DNA of 64,000 nucleotides, taken from NCBI GenBank assembly GCA_052055015.1, contig JBQJIT010000014.1. One strand, 5' to 3'. This document shows positions 5,155 through 56,674 of the stretch, in pieces. The stretch comes from Malassezia furfur. Its lineage: Eukaryota. The notes under the pieces were generated by a model. That model worked only from the letters and a program-made list of their open reading frames with translations. It did no database searches and was not told where the DNA came from. Position 1 is the first letter of the stretch. Every line of letters starts with the position of its first letter. A program made the position numbers and the translations under genes.

Positions 5155-5538
5155 ATGACCCCCACCACGACCATGCGTCCGCCACCTGAGAAACAACATC
5201 GCCGCCGTGCGCGCGGTGCGTCTCGCGGCGTACCGCGAGGCACAAGCACGGGCTCGTCATGCACAGAGCTCAGTGCTTGGCTCAGCGCGCGCTACCGTGC
5301 ACAGGAAGCCGCGGCACGCGATCCTTTGCTGGAGCGCAATAGGTCGTCTCGGGTCGACAAAGCGTCATCGCCCGAGGTCAAAACGACCTGTGCCACCTCT
5401 TCGGATGCACGGATGAAACAAAAGCAGAGCAATGCTGCACGTTCGTATTCCACGCTGATTCCAGCGAAGGATGCACATGCTTCGTTCCTCGCTGCACTGC
5501 GCAAGGCTGTGGCAGCGCAGGCCCAGAGTGCCCGATGA
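5155..5538 (+). CDS. Small basic hypothetical protein (~127 aa)
   Basis: ATG-initiated ORF MTPTTTMRPPPEKQHRRR... fills the gap between CWC25 and the PTM1 paralog. No recognised motif. Confidence 0.4.
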   Translation: MTPTTTMRPPPEKQHRRRARGASRGVPRGTSTGSSCTELSAWLSARYRAQEAAARDPLLERNRSSRVDKASSPEVKTTCATSSDARMKQKQSNAARSYSTLIPAKDAHASFLAALRKAVAAQAQSAR

Positions 5539-5607: not shown

Positions 5608-7137
5608 TTACATGCTATGGCCGTCCTGCAGCATAGTCGCTTCATACGCCTCCGCGGGATCTTCTTCATCCTTTGCCATCTCTTCGAGGAGGAGCTCAAA
5701 GAAGTTCCACTTCGGCGGCAGCACAAGGCACGAAAATACAACGAGATCTGGCGTGTCAGTCCGCCATACATACAACCCGTATAAGCCATACGTGGTAGGC
5801 CGTCCAAGAAAAGCCAAACGTTCGGCCATGTGTTGGCTGTGCCGTAGTTTCGTTCCGCGCGCAAAGCGACAAACAGAAACATGGACAGCACACCAATTAG
5901 CATGCTGGACAGTGCCCCCGTGGGAATCGCCAGGACAAGGCCAACCAGAATTCGCTTGTACTTGCCATGATAGAATTGACACGATTTCAGCATGGCAATC
6001 ATGAGCAGAACCAGATCAGCTGCGATGAACACAGTCAGTACAGCCATGGGAACCATAAGCATTGTTGAGTATTGATCGTTTATCCCAAATATTGCTCTTT
6101 GGCACGCCGCAGCTGCGAGTGCATAGCATACAAAAGAAAAGCCGCAGAGCCATCGCGTATTTTTCACCCCATGGGCGTGGAGAATGGTAGCTGAGTCCTG
6201 CTCAGCAGAGGCCGACATCAGTACATAGACGAGAAAAGTGATACGAGCAGCATCGGCTGCACAAGAGAGTGCTGAAACAATGCGAGAAGAGGACCAACCA
6301 CCTTCAAACATGGCCAGGATCCGGTCGCTGCGAAATGCATGTTGGTTGCTCCATGAATAGAGCAACCACGACGTAAAGATGTCAAACACAGAGAGGAAAA
6401 CAAGCTGGAAGCCTAGGTTCATCACTGTCCGGGCGTGCCTAGTCATGTACATGCTGCGTCGTTGGGGCGCAAGTTTCCACCATGCATAACCTAGAGCCAA
6501 GTATACCAGGCTCATAACTTGATAGAACGAGAGGAGTGGATACGCAGATGCAGGAAGATTGCCTCGGAACTTGTTGCGAAACTCTGCAGAAGCAACAACG
6601 TTCGGAACAGTATGGTTGGATCCCATACCAAGAAGCATGGCAACACAGTAATAACCGTCCACAGTCACATTGTACGCAAATGTTCTTGAAACACTCTCAA
6701 TAGTCGCATTCGGATACTTCATTTGCTGGATGGAATGGGTGTGGCCATCGTTCGCATTGATGAGAAACAGGTTCTCTTCCGAGGCATCACAGAGCCCATC
6801 GCGGATTGCTGCAGGTGTGCAACTGTATTCGATGTGCTTGGGTAAGGCATTACACGTACCTGTTTACCATACCGCTTCTGTTCGGGGTCAACCTTCCCAA
6901 ATTGCTCGATATCATTCATTTCAAATACAGCAACCGTCGCTATCCCAGCGACATGAGGATTGACGGCCACTGCGTAAGTGAAAGCTGCTTACCATGCACT
7001 GCAGTCCCAGAATCAGCCCATATTCCACTGCACACGCGCTCAGAGAGACCAGTCCCAGTGATTGGGACCGTAAACGCTTGAACAGACCATGGTAGTACCA
7101 GCCACGCCAACCAAGAAGAGCGATGCCATACCCGCAT
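5608..7137 (-). CDS. Divergent PTM1/TMEM87 (lung seven-transmembrane receptor, GOST family) paralog
   Basis: Signal peptide MRVWHRSSWLAWLVLPWSVQA. Introns at 6970-6992, 6837-6859 and 5748-5773 join the ORF pieces. YNVTVDGYYCV and FRNKFRGNLPA match the adjacent copy, followed by several TM segments. Confidence 0.8.
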
Positions 7138-7254
7138 CGACCGTTGCAGGTGGAGGCCCGAGCGATGCACTCATTGTAAAATTGGTCCATTTCAGCACAA
7201 TTCCCCATATTTGTCACCGCGAGAGCTGCTATTCTCAGGCGAGTGCTACTTGGT

Positions 7255-9061
7255 CTACCTGGACTTATGCGCATATTCGTCTTCATCTTCTGAAAGCTGG
7301 AGACGCACTCGCTCGGCATCATTGCCTGAGGCATCATAAGATGTCCGAGTGGGCGGGATCGGCTCTTGGTCCTCCGCATCGAACACGATATCGTCTTTCT
7401 GAACCTGCTTATACGGTTCGTTGCTTGAATATTTCGGCAGTTCCTCCTCACGCTGGATCGTTTCTTGCATGTGCGAAAGGTCCTGCAGATGCTCAGATCG
7501 AACCTCGACTGCATCCTGATCCAGTTCATCGTCAGATCCACCAAGCGTGTGCACTTCGTATTGACCCGCATCGGCTTCTTCGTCCGTTGCCAACTCGTCC
7601 GACATCGCCAGACGCATGTTCTGCCCTGTAGGTCGCCAGACATAGCAGATGGATGCAAAGACTGATGAGTGATGCATAACGTACCAATAAAGTAGAGCAG
7701 AGTCAAAGAACCGTCCAAAACAAACCAGCGGTACTCCCATGATGTGGTGGCCAGGTCACTAGTGTCGCTTGTCGCAAGCAAGAAAGACGAAAAGAAGAAG
7801 AAGCCAACGATGGCCACCACCGCACACATGAGAATAAGGTAGAGCCGCTGGAACATTTTGAATTTGTACGTCTGGCGACGTTCCGAAAGGTATTGCATGG
7901 TGGACTTGAGCGAATAGAGGATCCAGGACATGAATGCAGACAGCGTTCCCGCAAGGGGGAAGATGAAAAGCAGAGTCCAACTGCCACCCATTTCAAGAAG
8001 AATCAACACAATCCCCACCGAGTACAGGACTCCGAAGACAAAATGCAGCCCTGTAAGAAGCTGGACTTTGCGAATCACGGAGCCGATGGTCGGGCGCACC
8101 ACACCGTACCCCATCGACACAATGAGCAAAAGGAAGAAGGAGAGACTGTCCCGTGCAGCACCAAGGATACTTGTCAGGACGAGCAGAAAACGGGCCATAC
8201 CAGTCACGGCCGCGTTTTTGTCCACAGACTTGAACCGGAGGAAGTCGATTTCATGGTTGTTGTAATAGGCATAGAACAACCATTCACAGGCCATCTCAAG
8301 TACAAGGAAGGCAATCATCGCAGAGATGAAGTGTTGCACGGTCACAATCTGGTCGCGGTGAATGGTGCACAGGGAAAGCCAAGCGACGCCTAGCAATAGA
8401 TAGACCAGAGTCATCACACCATAGAATAGTAGTTTGGGGTGTTCGGCGGCCGGAAGGTTTCCTTTGAAGATATTGTGAAACACAACACGGCCATTAAAGT
8501 TTCCGTTTGACAATTCATTAGTTGCGAGAGAGGAAACTTCCGCAACCCCCACACAATAGTAGCCGTCGACCGTGACATTGTAAGAAAAGTTGGCGGTCTG
8601 GTTCGACTGCTGGTCGAAATTGAACTGCTTTTGCTGGATGGTGTATGTCTGTCCCAGGGATTCGTCCACAATGAACATGCCCAGTTGGTCTTGCTTACAC
8701 AGGCCATGCTGGATAGCGACGGAGCTGCAAACGTAGGTTTTGTACTAGGGTAAGAAGGAGAAAACGCACCAGTTGTCCATATTGCTGGCGCATGGGATCA
8801 AACTTTCCAATATTCCCAAACTCGGAGATCTCATAAATAATCGTAGTCGCCTGTCCCTTCGAGCCGGCGTCGAACACAACTGGGTCAGCACTGGCAGAAC
8901 ATACCGTCAATCGAGGTATTCTTCCCTGCATACATGCCGCTACATGCTTGACGCATGCCCTCTTTATCTTTTATCCCAACTGTGTATGCATGGCTGGGCA
9001 CTGCCAACAACGCGAGTGCTGCAACCAGCAACGCGGACACCCAGGCGACCCGCATCAGCAT
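7255..9061 (-). CDS. PTM1: PTM1/TMEM87-like Golgi membrane protein (lung seven-transmembrane receptor family)
   Basis: Signal peptide and CSGMY motif. Introns at 8880-8904, 8745-8769 and 7662-7684. Motifs GYYCV, GNLPAAEHPKLLFY, FFLLLIVSMGYGVVRPT and WRPT..N.RLAMSDEL, then an acidic tail. Confidence 0.9.
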
Positions 9062-51936: not shown

Positions 51937-54900
51937 CTACAGGTCGTCCTCCGTCGCATGGTAGCCCGCGCGGCGCATCGCGCCGAGCACGCGACGCGCC
52001 TGCATGAGCTCCTTCTCGAGCTTGAGCACCTCGACCTGCTGCTCCATCTCGCGCACCTTGAATTCGTGCGTCGGCATCCGCGAGTAGTCCATGTCACCCG
52101 TGTCGGACTGCCGGTCGGTGATGGTGCGCACCTGGCGCACCAGGGCGCGGCACGCGTCCGTCACCGCCTTGGCCGCACGCTCCAGGCGGTCCTGCGTTTT
52201 GGACATGAACTCGGCCTTGACGCGCGACGCCGCAACGAGCTGCACCGTCGCGGCGCTCACCTCGTTCGACGCGACGATCAGCTGCTCGAGGCTGTGCGAG
52301 CCCATGATGACACCGTCGGCGGCCTCGATGAGCATGGTCGATGCAAAGGCAACCGCACGTGCCGCCGAGATCAGGCCCTCGGTCCAGCGGTTGTGCTTCT
52401 TGTAGAACTGCTGCACGGTGCTCGTGCCGCGCCCGCGGGCCACAATCTCTTCCTGGCTCTCGGTTGCGGCGCGGATCAGGCCGCCGATGGCACGCATGAT
52501 GGCGAGCGCCGCCTCGAGGATCGTGTCGTGCACCTGCAGCTCGGTGGTCGAGAAGCGCGAGCCCGACTTTTCGCGCGAAAGCAGCGCCTGGAGCCGCTGC
52601 GTGGCCTGCTCGATGGTGTGCGCAGCACCGAGCATCTCGCGCTCTACCATGTCACCAATGTCGCCGCTCGCCTTGATCTGCTGCCCGGCGGCGATGAGCG
52701 ACTGCGCGGCGTCGGCGAGGCGCCCAAACGCCTGGTTCGCCTGCACGTTTTGTTGCGTCGCCACGTTGGCACGCTGCGCCGGGCTCATGCCGGCCAGGCG
52801 GAAGGACTGCAGGTTGAGGAACACACGCAGCAGCACGCCGCCGACATCGATGCCGAGGTTCGTGAGCCGCTCCATCGAGTCCTCGTCACGGGCGAAGCGC
52901 AGGATGCCCTTGTACGACGTGAGCGTCTCGGCAGCAGCCTGTGCGAGCTGGTTGGCGGTGCGGATCACATCGACGTGGTCGCCGCCCGCCTGCTGCTCGA
53001 GGTGCAGCGAAAAGACGGCGGCAAACTCGTTCGCGGACGCCTGGCCCTTTTCGATCATCGACAGGACGTACTCGGGCGTCGCGGCGGTGTTGCCCGAGGC
53101 GGTCGGCGCCTCGAGGCCGTACAGCGCCTCGTCGATCTTGTCCGCGCACGCCTGCAGGATCGAGTCGATGATCGTACTGAGCTTCTTGGCGTTGTCAAGG
53201 ATCACCGTGTCGATCTGCGCGTTGACTGCGTCGTCGTTCACGCCGCGGTCGAGGCGCAGGTCGTTCAGCTCGCGGATCGTCGAGTCCATGCCCTCCTGCA
53301 CGATGAGCAGCTCGGCGTCCTTCGCCTCCAGCTGGCCCTTGTGCGAGCGCAGCTCCTCCTCGAGCTCGGCGATCTGCGCATTCATGCGCGACATGATCTG
53401 CGACACCTCCGAGCCGCGAGCCTGTGCTGCGTCCTCGGCGCGCTCCTCGGCAAAGCGCAGCTCGCGCTTGAGGCGCTCCACCTCCTCCTTCTGGCCGCCG
53501 CGCAGCCGGTCAAGCTCGAGCCGTGCACGGTCGCGCTCGCGGATCATGTCGGACAGCTCGAGGTTCTTGGCCTTGACATCGCGCTCCATGCGCTCCATCT
53601 TGTTGATCGACTCCTGCGCGCTGCCTGCCTTCAGCTGCACCTGCTTGTACTTGGCGAGCAGGTCGAGGTGCTCCTTGCGCAGCTGCGAGTAGAGCTTCGC
53701 CAGTGCCTCGTACTTGCTGCGCCACGTCTCGGCCTGCTCCTGCAGCTGGGCCACCATCTCGTCCTTGGACGCCATCTGTGCGGATGTATTCGCATTGATC
53801 GCCGCCAGCTCCGTCTCGAGCTGGCGCACACGCCCGTCGTACTGTTGGAGCATCAGCTGGTCCCGCTCGTACTGTCCGCGCATCAGGAGCAGCTCACGCT
53901 CCATCTCGGCAACCCGGCCGTGGATGTGGTTCATCTGCTGCGACCGCATCAGCTGCTCCTGCGCCGCGCGCTGCTGCTCGGCCTGCTCGGCCTGCTGCGC
54001 CTGGAACGCGCGCTCCTGCTCGGCGGCACGCTCCATCAGGCGCCGCTGCTCGGCGGCCTCCGACTCCTTAAGCGCACGCTGCTTGTCCTCGTACTCTTTG
54101 AGCATGCGCGCCTGCTGGTCGATCTCGTCCTGCGTCGCCGTCGGCTCGGCGGGCGGCGGCGTCTCTGCGCGCGGCGCCTCGCGCGGCGGGAGCGCCGGCA
54201 CGTCCGGCGGCGGGGCAAGCAGACTCGGCGGATCGGTGTTGAGCTTGGGCACATTGATCAGGCTCGTGAGGAACTTGAGCGACGCACACTCAAAGTAGAA
54301 GCGGCGCAGCTCGTGGTGCTGCTCGTTGTAGCGCCCACGCAGCGGCTCGAGCGCATCCATCGCATCCATGCGGCGGTGCATCGCACGGAGCATCGACGTG
54401 AGGAACTTGTAGATGCCGTACGACTCCTTCACAAGTGGCACCAGCGACGAAATCTGGCACTCGTTGTTCACGCGGCCCTGCAGCGACGAGAACACCTGCT
54501 TCTGGAAGCGCTCAATCCGATCCTGCAGGTTCATCAGCTCAATGATCGTCTCGTAGCCCTCGTCGGGGTTATCAATGTTCTTCAGCGAGATGTACTCCTC
54601 GTACTCAAACAGGCCGTTGAATTCCTTGTGGATGCGGTGGAAGCGCAGCTTCGCATTGATGAATGACACGTACGCAGAGATCAGTGTGCCATAGCCACGG
54701 CGCACCGAGTTGCCCGACATACGCGCGCACGTATCAAGCCAGTTGCTTTGCGACTGCGCCTCGCGCAGGACAATCGGGTGGCCCTCCTGGAGCACCTTGT
54801 GCACCAGGATCAGCGCCTTGAACGTCTGTACTTCATCGTTCAGGATGGGCAGCACACGCAGACCCGACCACACCGACAGGGACGACTTGTGGTCCCAGGT

Positions 54901-55076
54901 GTACACAATGCATTCTGCGTGAGCCAGCGCGACGTACTCCGGACATGCTTTTGCTTCGGCGCAGTCTCTTCAGGGCTCGTCGCCTTTTTCAGATGCACCA
55001 CGAGCTCCTGCTCGGTCTTGTCGCGATCAAAGGGGCGCGTCGCGCTACCCAGCAGCTGATCGGCGTACCGCGACAT
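51937..55076 (-). CDS. SLA2: Endocytic adaptor Sla2/End4 (ANTH, coiled coil, I/LWEQ)
   Basis: KKATSPEETAPKQKHVRKCIVYTWDH after removing a 23-nt intron at 54915-54937. C-terminal FYKKHNRWTEGLISAA...LVAASRVKA talin-like domain. Confidence 0.96.
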
Positions 55077-55168: not shown

Positions 55169-55177
55169 AAAAAGAAA
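55169..55177 (-). terminator. Pol III terminator of the tRNA gene
   Basis: TTTCTTTTT immediately 3' of the tRNA on the minus strand. Confidence 0.7.
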
Positions 55178-55260
55178 TGACCAAGGTGGGGATCGAACCC
55201 ACGAATAACGGCGTGAAAGGCAACCTAAAGCCGTCGCAGTAACCACTTTGCTACTCGGCC
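55178..55260 (-). tRNA. tRNA with UAG anticodon (putative tRNA-Leu), 10-nt intron, short variable loop
   Basis: Cloverleaf: GGCCGAG TA GCA AAGTGGTTAC TGC G ACGGC TTTAGG[TTGCCTTTCA]C GCCGT TATTC GTGGG TTCGATC CCCAC CTTGGTC A. A and B boxes are intact. Confidence 0.85.
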
Positions 55261-55301: not shown

Positions 55302-56674
55302 CTAGGCTACGGCCATACGCAGCTCGGCAAGCACCGCGTCCCAGAACAGCATCGCGTCGGGCACAAGGCCCACGTTAAACACAGTGTGTGGCGCAGGCGA
55401 CTCCTGGCCCAGCGTGATCTCCGCCAGGGGGATATCGCCAAGCTGGGGGTGCACCTGCGACGACCACAGCCGCCCGTTGGTGCCACGCACCGTGTCGCGG
55501 CCGTCGAGGTAGAGCGACGCGGTGCGCGCGTTGTTGAGCTGTGCCACGCGGTTGGCGTACACAAACGGACGGTCGTTCGAGTCGTCGGTCGGCTTGAACG
55601 ACGCACGCAGGCTCTCGAGCAGTGCACGCACCGAGCCGTGTGCGTCCGGCGCCGGGAGCGGCAGGCTGCGCCACGCAACGCGCGCGTTGCCGACCGTCTT
55701 TTGCAGCGACGTAATCATGTCAACGGTGCGCGCGCGCCAGTTTTTAATGCGCTGCTCCGTGAGGTCCTGCGAGGTAACGAGGCCCATCTGCGCGTCCTCC
55801 ATGGCCCACGTCGCCAGGTCCCACAGGCCCGACGAAAACACGGCAAGGTCCACGCCGTTGCGGCGGAGAGGCAGCGAAGCGACAGAGCGGGGCGCCTTGA
55901 GCGACTGCAGGTAAACGCTCAGCAGCTCCTCCATGCGCGCCTCGAAGCGTTGCGGGGGGTAGTACGTCGGCTGCTTGTGCCAGACATTGGATGTCTCAGT
56001 ACCGTAGTGGTAGAACGAGGTGAAAAGCGCGTCAAACTGGTCGATGTAGCAGTAGTCGGCCAGCAGCGTGTCTCCCGGCGGCGTCTCGCTGTCGACATTC
56101 TTGAGCGCACCGCCGAATGCGTGGTCGGCCGTGACGCTGACGCTCGAGGTGCCGAGCATCGTGCACAGGTTCTGCACCATAGCACGGTCCAAGGCGTCAC
56201 CGACGAGCAGCACCGTGCGGTTCTGCAGCACACGCTCTAGCTCCTGCCGGTCCTGCGCCGACATGGTCACAGGGCGGTTCGTGGCCACTGGACCCGCACT
56301 CGCAGTAGGCACGGCGGTGAGTAGGTGCGCAAACAAACGCGGGGATTCGCACGACTCGTCAAACGACTTCCACACGGGGTAAGGATCGTGCGCGACGTAG
56401 CCCGGCTTCGTAAACGAGCTGCAGGCGCCGCTGCGTGCGACACGCGACGCCATCGAGTTCGGCACCGAGCTGTGGGGTAAGCACATGGCGAAACAACCTA
56501 CCCAGGTACCCCACCCAGCGAAGCAAGCATGGAGATCACGAAAAACACCAAGGACAAAACTGCGTCAGATCAGTACAACCTACCCGTCAGAATATTACCC
56601 AGGCGCTGCACCTGGGAGTCGCCACGCGCAGCGCGCGAGCCACCCGTCAAGGGTCGATGCCCAGCGTCAGACAT
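55302..56674 (-). CDS. Type II membrane protein with SGNH/PC-esterase-like (Cap64/Cas3-like) domain
   Basis: Spliced N-terminal TM anchor ILTVLSLVFFVISMLASL (introns at 56560-56583 and 56470-56501). Segments LQNRTVLLVGDALDR and DLAVFSSGLWDL. Confidence 0.65.

Follow-up and report, generated by a model that had tools for sequence, protein, structure and literature searches.

The window, by which we mean the whole 64,000 nt stretch of Malassezia furfur DNA that was analysed, has a mean G+C content of 63.0%. It contains a tRNA gene on the minus strand, and long intron-free open reading frames (ORFs) in the neighbourhood of this gene encode RRP5, SLA2 (with ANTH and I/LWEQ domains) and SKI2, as assigned with Pfam. 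Elsewhere in the window, between positions 5500 and 10500, the G+C content falls to 41-53% per 500 nt. Long ORFs are still present in this low-G+C stretch, including one on the minus strand (6921-8678) that encodes a GOST seven-transmembrane domain. The features of the tRNA locus are listed below in the direction of transcription.

55302..56486, minus strand: ORF of 394 aa without a Pfam family, upstream of the tRNA gene and ending 42 bp before it.

55178..55260, minus strand: whole tRNA gene, 83 nt with its intron and 73 nt as the mature form before CCA addition (Rfam RF00005, ARAGORN, orthologues).

55224..55260, minus strand: 5′ exon, tRNA positions 1-37, ending in TTTAGG (U32 U33 U34 A35 G36 G37); 37 of 37 positions are invariant in 8 of 8 sequences.

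55243..55253, minus strand: internal promoter stretch resembling an A box, TAGCAAAGTGG, which agrees at 10 of 11 positions with the consensus given in the available part of PMC3333845.

55225..55227, minus strand: anticodon TAG (UAG), from the sequence, from ARAGORN with the intron fixed at 37/38 and from ARAGORN with a free intron position in seven related loci.

55214..55223, minus strand: predicted intron, TTGCCTTTCA, located at 37/38; it is 10 nt long here and 10 or 11 nt in the lineages compared.

55178..55213, minus strand: 3′ exon, running from C38 through the 3′ side of the anticodon stem, TATTC and the T arm to the 3′ side of the acceptor stem and A73; 35 of 36 positions are invariant.

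55189..55199, minus strand: B-box-like internal promoter stretch, GGTTCGATCCC, recognized from the sequence; the usual B-box consensus is GGTTCGANNCC.

55169..55177, minus strand: trailer rich in T, TTTCTTTTT, which probably serves as the RNA polymerase III terminator, recognized from the sequence.

51937..54906, minus strand: SLA2 gene (ANTH and I/LWEQ domains by Pfam), downstream of the tRNA gene and used here as a synteny anchor; its product is 100% identical to 'SLA2 [Malassezia furfur]'.

The tRNA gene matches the Rfam tRNA family (RF00005) with 51.8 bits (E 3.2e-08), the sole match in 64 kb on both strands, and ARAGORN delimits the same span (55178-55260) as the only tRNA in the window. 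The RF00005 alignment places a 13 nt insertion within the anticodon loop. Read from its 5′ end at 55260 on the minus strand, the gene yields a cloverleaf with a 7 bp acceptor stem (GGCCGAG/CTTGGTC) that includes the wobble pairs G2:U71 and G5:U68 and carries C3:G70 in place of G3:U70. The D arm is preceded by U8 and A9 and followed by G26; its stem has three pairs (G10:C25, C11:G24 and A12:U23), with A13 facing C22, and its loop is AGTGGTTA. A perfect 5 bp anticodon stem (ACGGC/GCCGT) closes 17 nt, TTTAGGTTGCCTTTCAC. Beyond it lie a variable loop of 5 nt (TATTC), a T arm (GTGGG-TTCGATC-CCCAC) and the discriminator A73 at position 55178. An earlier note, made from the letters of this DNA, had described the cloverleaf, the A and B boxes, the T run, the 3 bp D stem, the TTTAGG loop with G37, A73 and the TATTC loop, and had remarked on the two acceptor-stem wobbles and the lack of G3:U70. 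All of these are correct on reading the minus strand.

The hallmarks of a nuclear pre-tRNA gene, namely an A box, a B box and an oligo-T terminator, are present, and transcription is predicted from them. A run of 4-6 T residues no more than 10 nt from the 3′ end occurs in all four of the Malassezia lineages compared below. Rfam also reports a Vault RNA match over 55175-55260 with 20 bits, below the gathering score of 34, which is most likely a by-product of shared polymerase III A and B boxes. An exact-pattern scan of prokaryote genomes for this tRNA returned 0 matches, as expected.

The assignment of the tRNA to a structural class depends on its variable region. A type I tRNA-Leu is recognized by the U8:A14 combination, A73, a short variable loop and a Leu anticodon, and all four are found here. 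Features of a class II tRNA-Leu are found as well, since the anticodon belongs to the Leu set (NAG or YAA; UAG in 8 of 8 sequences) and A73 is invariant. What is missing from class II is the long variable arm (at least 10 nt, folded as a stem-loop), the place of which is taken by an invariant loop of 5 nt.

To find relatives of the locus, metagenome contigs were searched with SLA2. This search yielded 35 loci, of which seven are Malassezia-like (SLA2 75-79% identical to that of the window). For comparison, the best database matches of the window SLA2 after the M. furfur protein itself are those of other Malassezia species (75-90% identity), followed by Ustilaginomycotina (66-69%). The seven loci fall into three lineages besides M. 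furfur: L001-L003, with SLA2 proteins that are identical among themselves and 86% identical to the M. pachydermatis protein; L004-L006, with SLA2 proteins 98-99% identical among themselves; and L007. Gene order around SLA2 in the Malassezia-like loci matches that of the window. ARAGORN finds one tRNA in each of the seven, 300-700 bp upstream of SLA2 and on the same strand, and the four of these loci that were scanned with Rfam give tRNA scores of 51.8-52.6 bits. Among the 28 other fungal loci, ARAGORN places a tRNA upstream of SLA2 in none. In the Tilletia-like locus L008 (1-4021), whose SLA2 is 100% identical to the T. maclaganii protein, neither ARAGORN nor Rfam detects a tRNA in the 4 kb upstream of SLA2, and the linkage of tRNA and SLA2 is therefore not common to this locus. 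The 394-aa ORF has orthologues at the same position in L001, L003, L004, L006 and L007 that are 41-43% identical, compared with 75-79% for SLA2, and it has the look of a fast-evolving, genus-restricted gene.

An alignment of the tRNA from the window with those of the seven Malassezia-like loci (eight sequences, four lineages) reveals near-complete conservation of the exons, which are invariant at 72 of 73 positions in all eight sequences. The one variable position is T-loop position 59, with T or A. Invariant positions number only 1 of 30 in the 5′ flank and 2 of 10 in the intron, and the neighbouring proteins are 41-79% identical between lineages (i.e. they differ by 21-59%). This pattern indicates that the tRNA gene is under strong purifying selection. 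As part of the reading that we favour, it is probably a working nuclear gene common to at least four Malassezia lineages.

The excision of any 10 consecutive nucleotides from the 17 enclosed by the anticodon stem gives TTC, TAC or TAG as the anticodon, and the sequence of the window alone does not decide among them. The corresponding inserts in the related loci are TCTCCTACAC in L001-L003, ATTCCTAATC in L004-L006 and TCCTGCTATTC in L007. When the eight sequences are aligned, the variable block is bounded by invariant TTTAGG before it and by an invariant C after it. Because the boundary between frozen and free nucleotides falls exactly at 37/38 and before C38, the mature anticodon loop is expected to be UUUAGGC, with the anticodon UAG.

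The predicted structure of the precursor is consistent with this boundary. A helix of 3-5 pairs between the anticodon loop and the intron is predicted in every lineage (AGG:CCU, UAGG:CCUA, UUAGG:CCUAA or UAG:CUA), and in the window the intron CCT is predicted to pair with AGG of the anticodon loop. The register of this helix shifts among loci, with UAG:CUA and an 11 nt intron in L007 (5311-5396) and a 5 bp UUAGG:CCUAA helix in L004 and L006 (L004:5579-5662). In these folds, drift of the intron sequence does not seem to have abolished its pairing with the anticodon. The 37/38 site is the canonical intron position of nuclear tRNA genes, an anticodon-intron helix is the usual architecture of nuclear pre-tRNAs, and the S. 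cerevisiae tRNA-Leu(UAG) gene also has an intron at 37/38. The conservation pattern thus supports a canonical 37/38 intron, the anticodon UAG and G37, with splicing itself as the predicted step. The earlier note had proposed a 10 nt intron at this site, and it is there that the conservation boundary across four lineages falls.

The meaning of CUA in Malassezia was assessed with CTA codons in protein-coding genes, both against distant fungi and within the genus. For the distant test, the SLA2 genes of L001, L004, L006 and L007, which together contain 26 CTA codons, were aligned with 104 non-Malassezia fungal SLA2 orthologues (P0017-P0120; the Malassezia-like sequences P0001-P0016 were excluded). 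Twenty-two of the 26 codons lie in columns that are at least 85% Leu, and 13 of these columns are Leu in 104 of 104 orthologues. In the remaining four, F, M or G predominates and Leu accounts for 18-43%. When pooled against the distant orthologues, CTA columns are 88% Leu, compared with 68-72% for CTG, CTC and CTT.

The within-genus test covered five genes in four lineages, with 86 CTA codons, 85 of which have non-CTA partners. Of these 85, 64 (75%) face mostly non-CTA Leu codons, nine face some and 12 face none. Comparable proportions facing mostly Leu were obtained for CTG (433 of 625), CTC (304 of 420), CTT (156 of 234) and TTG (136 of 193), whereas the control codons GTG (31 of 653) and ATC (26 of 358) rarely do so. 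The share of CTA codons without a Leu partner (12/85) is similar to that for other Leu codons, and the partner residue profile of CTA within the genus, which is 78% Leu, is the same as theirs. Among the nine CTA codons of the window itself, seven face mostly Leu, one some and one none. Three of the window CTA codons can be placed on yeast Ski2: SKI2 residue 584, within the helicase motif HHxGLLP, and residue 950 both align with Leu, and residue 794 aligns with Phe.

CTA is rare in the window, accounting for 9 of 462 Leu codons (1.9%), and makes up 8-9% in two lineages of lower G+C content. The loci of these two lineages (L004, L006 and L007) have approximately 52% G+C, compared with 63% for the window, and CTA, TTA and TTG are several-fold commoner there. 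Codon usage has shifted strongly within the genus, and the tRNA has stayed identical. Judged by these alignments, which would be blind to low-level insertion of another amino acid, CUA is an ordinary leucine codon in Malassezia. Since CUA still means leucine, the result argues against reassignment and in favour of a class-I-shaped tRNA-Leu. The earlier note had left a choice between such a tRNA-Leu and a tRNA charged with another amino acid. The former finds support in the meaning of CUA, with leucine charging as its predicted part, and the latter does not. No evidence was seen for the match with genome compaction that the note had attached to the former.

The nucleotides expected to direct leucylation are also in place. 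According to the available portions of PMC3488233 and PMC9976931, G2, G30, C61 and C62 of S. cerevisiae tRNA-Leu(UAG) have moderate effects, A35 and G36 are important in vitro, and position 2 forms a G:U wobble. The Malassezia tRNA shares with this yeast tRNA (as described in the text available from PMC3488233) the anticodon UAG, G37, A73, G2:U71, C28:G42, G30:C40, C61, C62, G18 and the Leu codon; with A35, G36 and position 55 in addition, all the yeast tRNA-Leu(UAG) determinants that were tested are present. Unlike the canonical cytosolic tRNA-Leu(UAG), it has a 5 nt loop and no long variable arm. The arm is regarded as structurally important in the accessible part of PMC3488233, and the LeuRS enzymes of humans and archaea reportedly make use of the variable region (PMC9976931 and PMC6614811, from the sections available). 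Leucylation without the arm is described in the same portions of these two papers, for minimal variants of E. coli tRNA-Leu and human mitochondrial tRNA-Leu (PMC9976931) and for the type I tRNA-Leu(CAA) of Streptomyces coelicolor (PMC6614811).

Taken together, these features make it likely that the gene specifies a spliced, leucine-accepting, short-armed (class I shaped) cytosolic tRNA-Leu(UAG). The separate parts of this proposal can be stated with different degrees of assurance. A conserved class-I-shaped UAG tRNA is almost certainly expressed and spliced, to judge from comparative sequence data. It most likely accepts leucine, given its identity nucleotides and the meaning of CUA, and the Malassezia leucine-charging enzyme would then probably accept a short-armed tRNA. 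If a long arm is taken to define the class II tRNA-Leu family, the molecule lies outside that family, and yet it most likely works as a tRNA-Leu.

In the mechanism we propose, RNA polymerase III would transcribe the gene from its internal A and B boxes and stop in the T run. The 10 nt intron would be excised at 37/38, a position that is supported by conservation, from a precursor in which the anticodon is paired to the intron. The product would be a mature 73 nt tRNA with the anticodon loop UUUAGGC. Cytosolic LeuRS would charge this tRNA by way of A73, A35, G36, G37 and the corner formed by the D and T loops, with no need for a long variable arm, and the charged tRNA would decode CUA, and probably CUG by wobble, as leucine.

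Several other explanations were weighed against this one. We regard it as very improbable that the insert is cut elsewhere than at 37/38, whether by an earlier cut that produces a tRNA-Glu(UUC) or through retention of the insert, which would give a long variable arm and the anticodon UUA. ARAGORN provides some grounds for both, since in the window it calls Glu(ttc) with an intron at 34/35 when the intron position is free and Stop(tta) when introns are disallowed, the two calls having nearly equal scores (108.8 and 107.9); the intron must be fixed at 37/38 for the window to be called Leu(tag). In seven of seven related loci, however, the free-position setting returns Leu(tag) with a 10 or 11 nt intron at position 38. 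The Glu(UUC) form requires CTTTCAC, which is present in M. furfur only, the 3′ part of the insert being CTACACC, CTAATCC or CTATTCC in the other lineages. The earlier note had read CTTTCAC in the insert, which holds for M. furfur and fails in three other lineages; the Glu(UUC) splice form that it had raised is accordingly removed by the comparison, and the motif appears as an accident of the M. furfur intron. A Val(UAC) form, left by cutting another 10 nt, was likewise rejected, as only TTTAGG...C is conserved. The unspliced fold has a poor anticodon stem and a 16 nt unpaired variable region in the window. It would trade the perfect, invariant ACGGC/GCCGT stem for 2-3 pairs, it forms no consistent arm helix, and its anticodon differs between lineages, being tta for the window and L001 but tag for L004 and L007. 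Intron positions other than the canonical one are not known from fungi. The proposal that the tRNA reassigns CUA or makes its meaning ambiguous, a situation known from Ascoidea and from the CUG-Ser and CUG-Ala yeasts, also appears improbable, even though it has points in its favour: the class I shape is typical of non-Leu tRNAs, budding yeasts have class I or Ser-type tRNAs with CAG anticodons (PMC4937558, PMC5951914 and PMC6041473, in the text available), and CTA is rare in the window, as captured codons are. Against it stand the 22 of 26 SLA2 CTA codons at conserved Leu columns, 13 of them at 104/104, and the within-genus alignments, where CTA behaves like CTG, CTC, CTT and TTG. Moreover, CTA accounts for 8-9% of the Leu codons in two lineages, whereas a captured codon would be expected to be depleted. 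The codon of a reassignment tRNA, such as tRNA-Ser(CAG), tRNA-Ala(CAG) or the yeast mitochondrial tRNA-Thr(UAG), should align in conserved proteins with its new amino acid, and CTA instead aligns with Leu. The tRNA itself lacks G3:U70 for AlaRS and a long arm for SerRS, and at position 36 it has G, whereas ValRS or IleRS would call for C or U; the identity rules of these four enzymes are established knowledge, covered in part by the available text of PMC9976931.

A pseudogene or tRNA-derived repeat would be scarcely credible here. This explanation is prompted by the tRNAscan-SE authors, for whom a short-armed body carrying a Leu or Ser anticodon raises suspicion of a pseudogene or repeat, for example in Serpula (available text of PMC8450103). 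The Malassezia tRNA, however, occurs once in the window and once in each locus, it is syntenic with unconserved flanks, and its exons have stayed invariant across lineages whose neighbouring proteins have diverged widely. The earlier note had named absence from relatives as a sign of a pseudogene, but the gene is present in 7 of 7 Malassezia-like loci with near-invariant exons. An unlikely explanation, although one that deserves more serious attention, is that a conserved spare or specialized tRNA exists beside a normal long-armed tRNA-Leu(UAG), perhaps poorly charged and having a non-decoding role (in regulation or as a source of fragments) or undergoing mitochondrial import. The short-armed tRNA would be free for another role if CUA had a second reader, either a long-armed tRNA-Leu(UAG) or a tRNA-Leu(AAG) bearing inosine. 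Nevertheless, no position of the anticodon loop varies, and each lineage maintains the anticodon-intron helix with pairs of its own, which fits a decoding tRNA. Import would not be needed, since the mitogenomes encode trnL: those of M. furfur carry 24 tRNA genes including trnL (PMC8510979), and Malassezia mitogenomes carry 22-32 tRNA genes (PMC10113387), according to the available parts of both papers. Finally, the Leu anticodon is old and common to four lineages, unlike that of a human tRNA gene described in the accessible text of PMC8450103. This human gene resembles the Malassezia gene in being nuclear and short-armed with a Leu anticodon. It arose through a recent single-base change, is confined to three apes and has very low expression, whereas in Malassezia anticodon and body are fixed across the genus.

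The short-armed cytosolic tRNA-Leu(UAG) that we favour can be compared with other tRNAs in which arm class and leucine identity diverge. One counterpart is the S. coelicolor type I tRNA-Leu(CAA), which is likewise short-armed and, as in the arrangement proposed here, presumably shares a compartment and one LeuRS with long-armed tRNA-Leu (PMC6614811, in the part available). Unlike the Malassezia tRNA, the Streptomyces tRNA is bacterial, is charged by a bacterial-type LeuRS, lacks an intron and shows modest effects of A73 changes (same portion of PMC6614811). Animal mitochondrial tRNA-Leu, also of type I, has a short variable loop, and its main determinants as given in the available text of PMC9976931, A73 and A14, are both present in Malassezia. 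The animal tRNA is organellar, with a relaxed structure and a dedicated bacterial-type LeuRS, whereas the Malassezia gene is nuclear and GC-balanced, contains an intron and internal promoter boxes, and is followed by a T-run terminator. The nematode nev-tRNAs (available sections of PMC3333845) provide another conserved nuclear case in which arm class is mismatched to anticodon, and one that also bears on the choice of substrates by LeuRS. They are the mirror image of the Malassezia tRNA, having a long-armed Leu-type body with Gly or Ile anticodons, being charged with Leu and decoding alternatively, whereas the Malassezia tRNA has a non-Leu-type shape and a Leu anticodon, and its codon keeps the standard meaning. 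Given the nuclear intron and promoter boxes, an origin independent of the mitochondrial, Streptomyces or phage type I tRNA-Leu is the more likely one.

In descriptions of eukaryotic cytosolic tRNA-Leu, the long arm is a constant feature. A lexical literature search, which covered a portion of the journals, yielded no description of a cytosolic short-armed tRNA-Leu in fungi or in the eukaryotic cytoplasm at large, and a search of PMC12820176 and PMC8826637 gave no relevant Malassezia tRNA data. The earlier note had allowed that a short arm might already be documented as normal for this clade; within the reach of the same search no such report was found. In eukaryotes, according to the available text of PMC6614811, a membrane separates type I from type II tRNA-Leu, and each type is served by a LeuRS of its own. 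A conserved short-armed tRNA-Leu in the fungal cytosol would be an exception both to the long-arm rule and to this separation of compartments. We put at about even the chances that this is the first short-armed tRNA-Leu described from the eukaryotic cytoplasm, with one archaeal/eukaryal-type LeuRS charging both arm classes in one compartment, and perhaps the only dedicated CUA reader of the genus. If so, the genus offers a natural experiment in which the long arm is dispensable for cytosolic LeuRS. It would also supply a natural substrate for studying how an archaeal/eukaryal-type LeuRS recognizes a tRNA without the long arm, and how SerRS and other synthetases are kept off.

The gene also has a practical bearing on annotation in Malassezia, a skin yeast of medical relevance. 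Tools for annotation do not agree on its identity, with ARAGORN naming it Stop, Glu or Leu according to settings, and isotype filters may flag it as a pseudogene. In its default mode (bacterial, without introns), ARAGORN calls a tRNA-Stop(tta), which might be taken for a suppressor tRNA.
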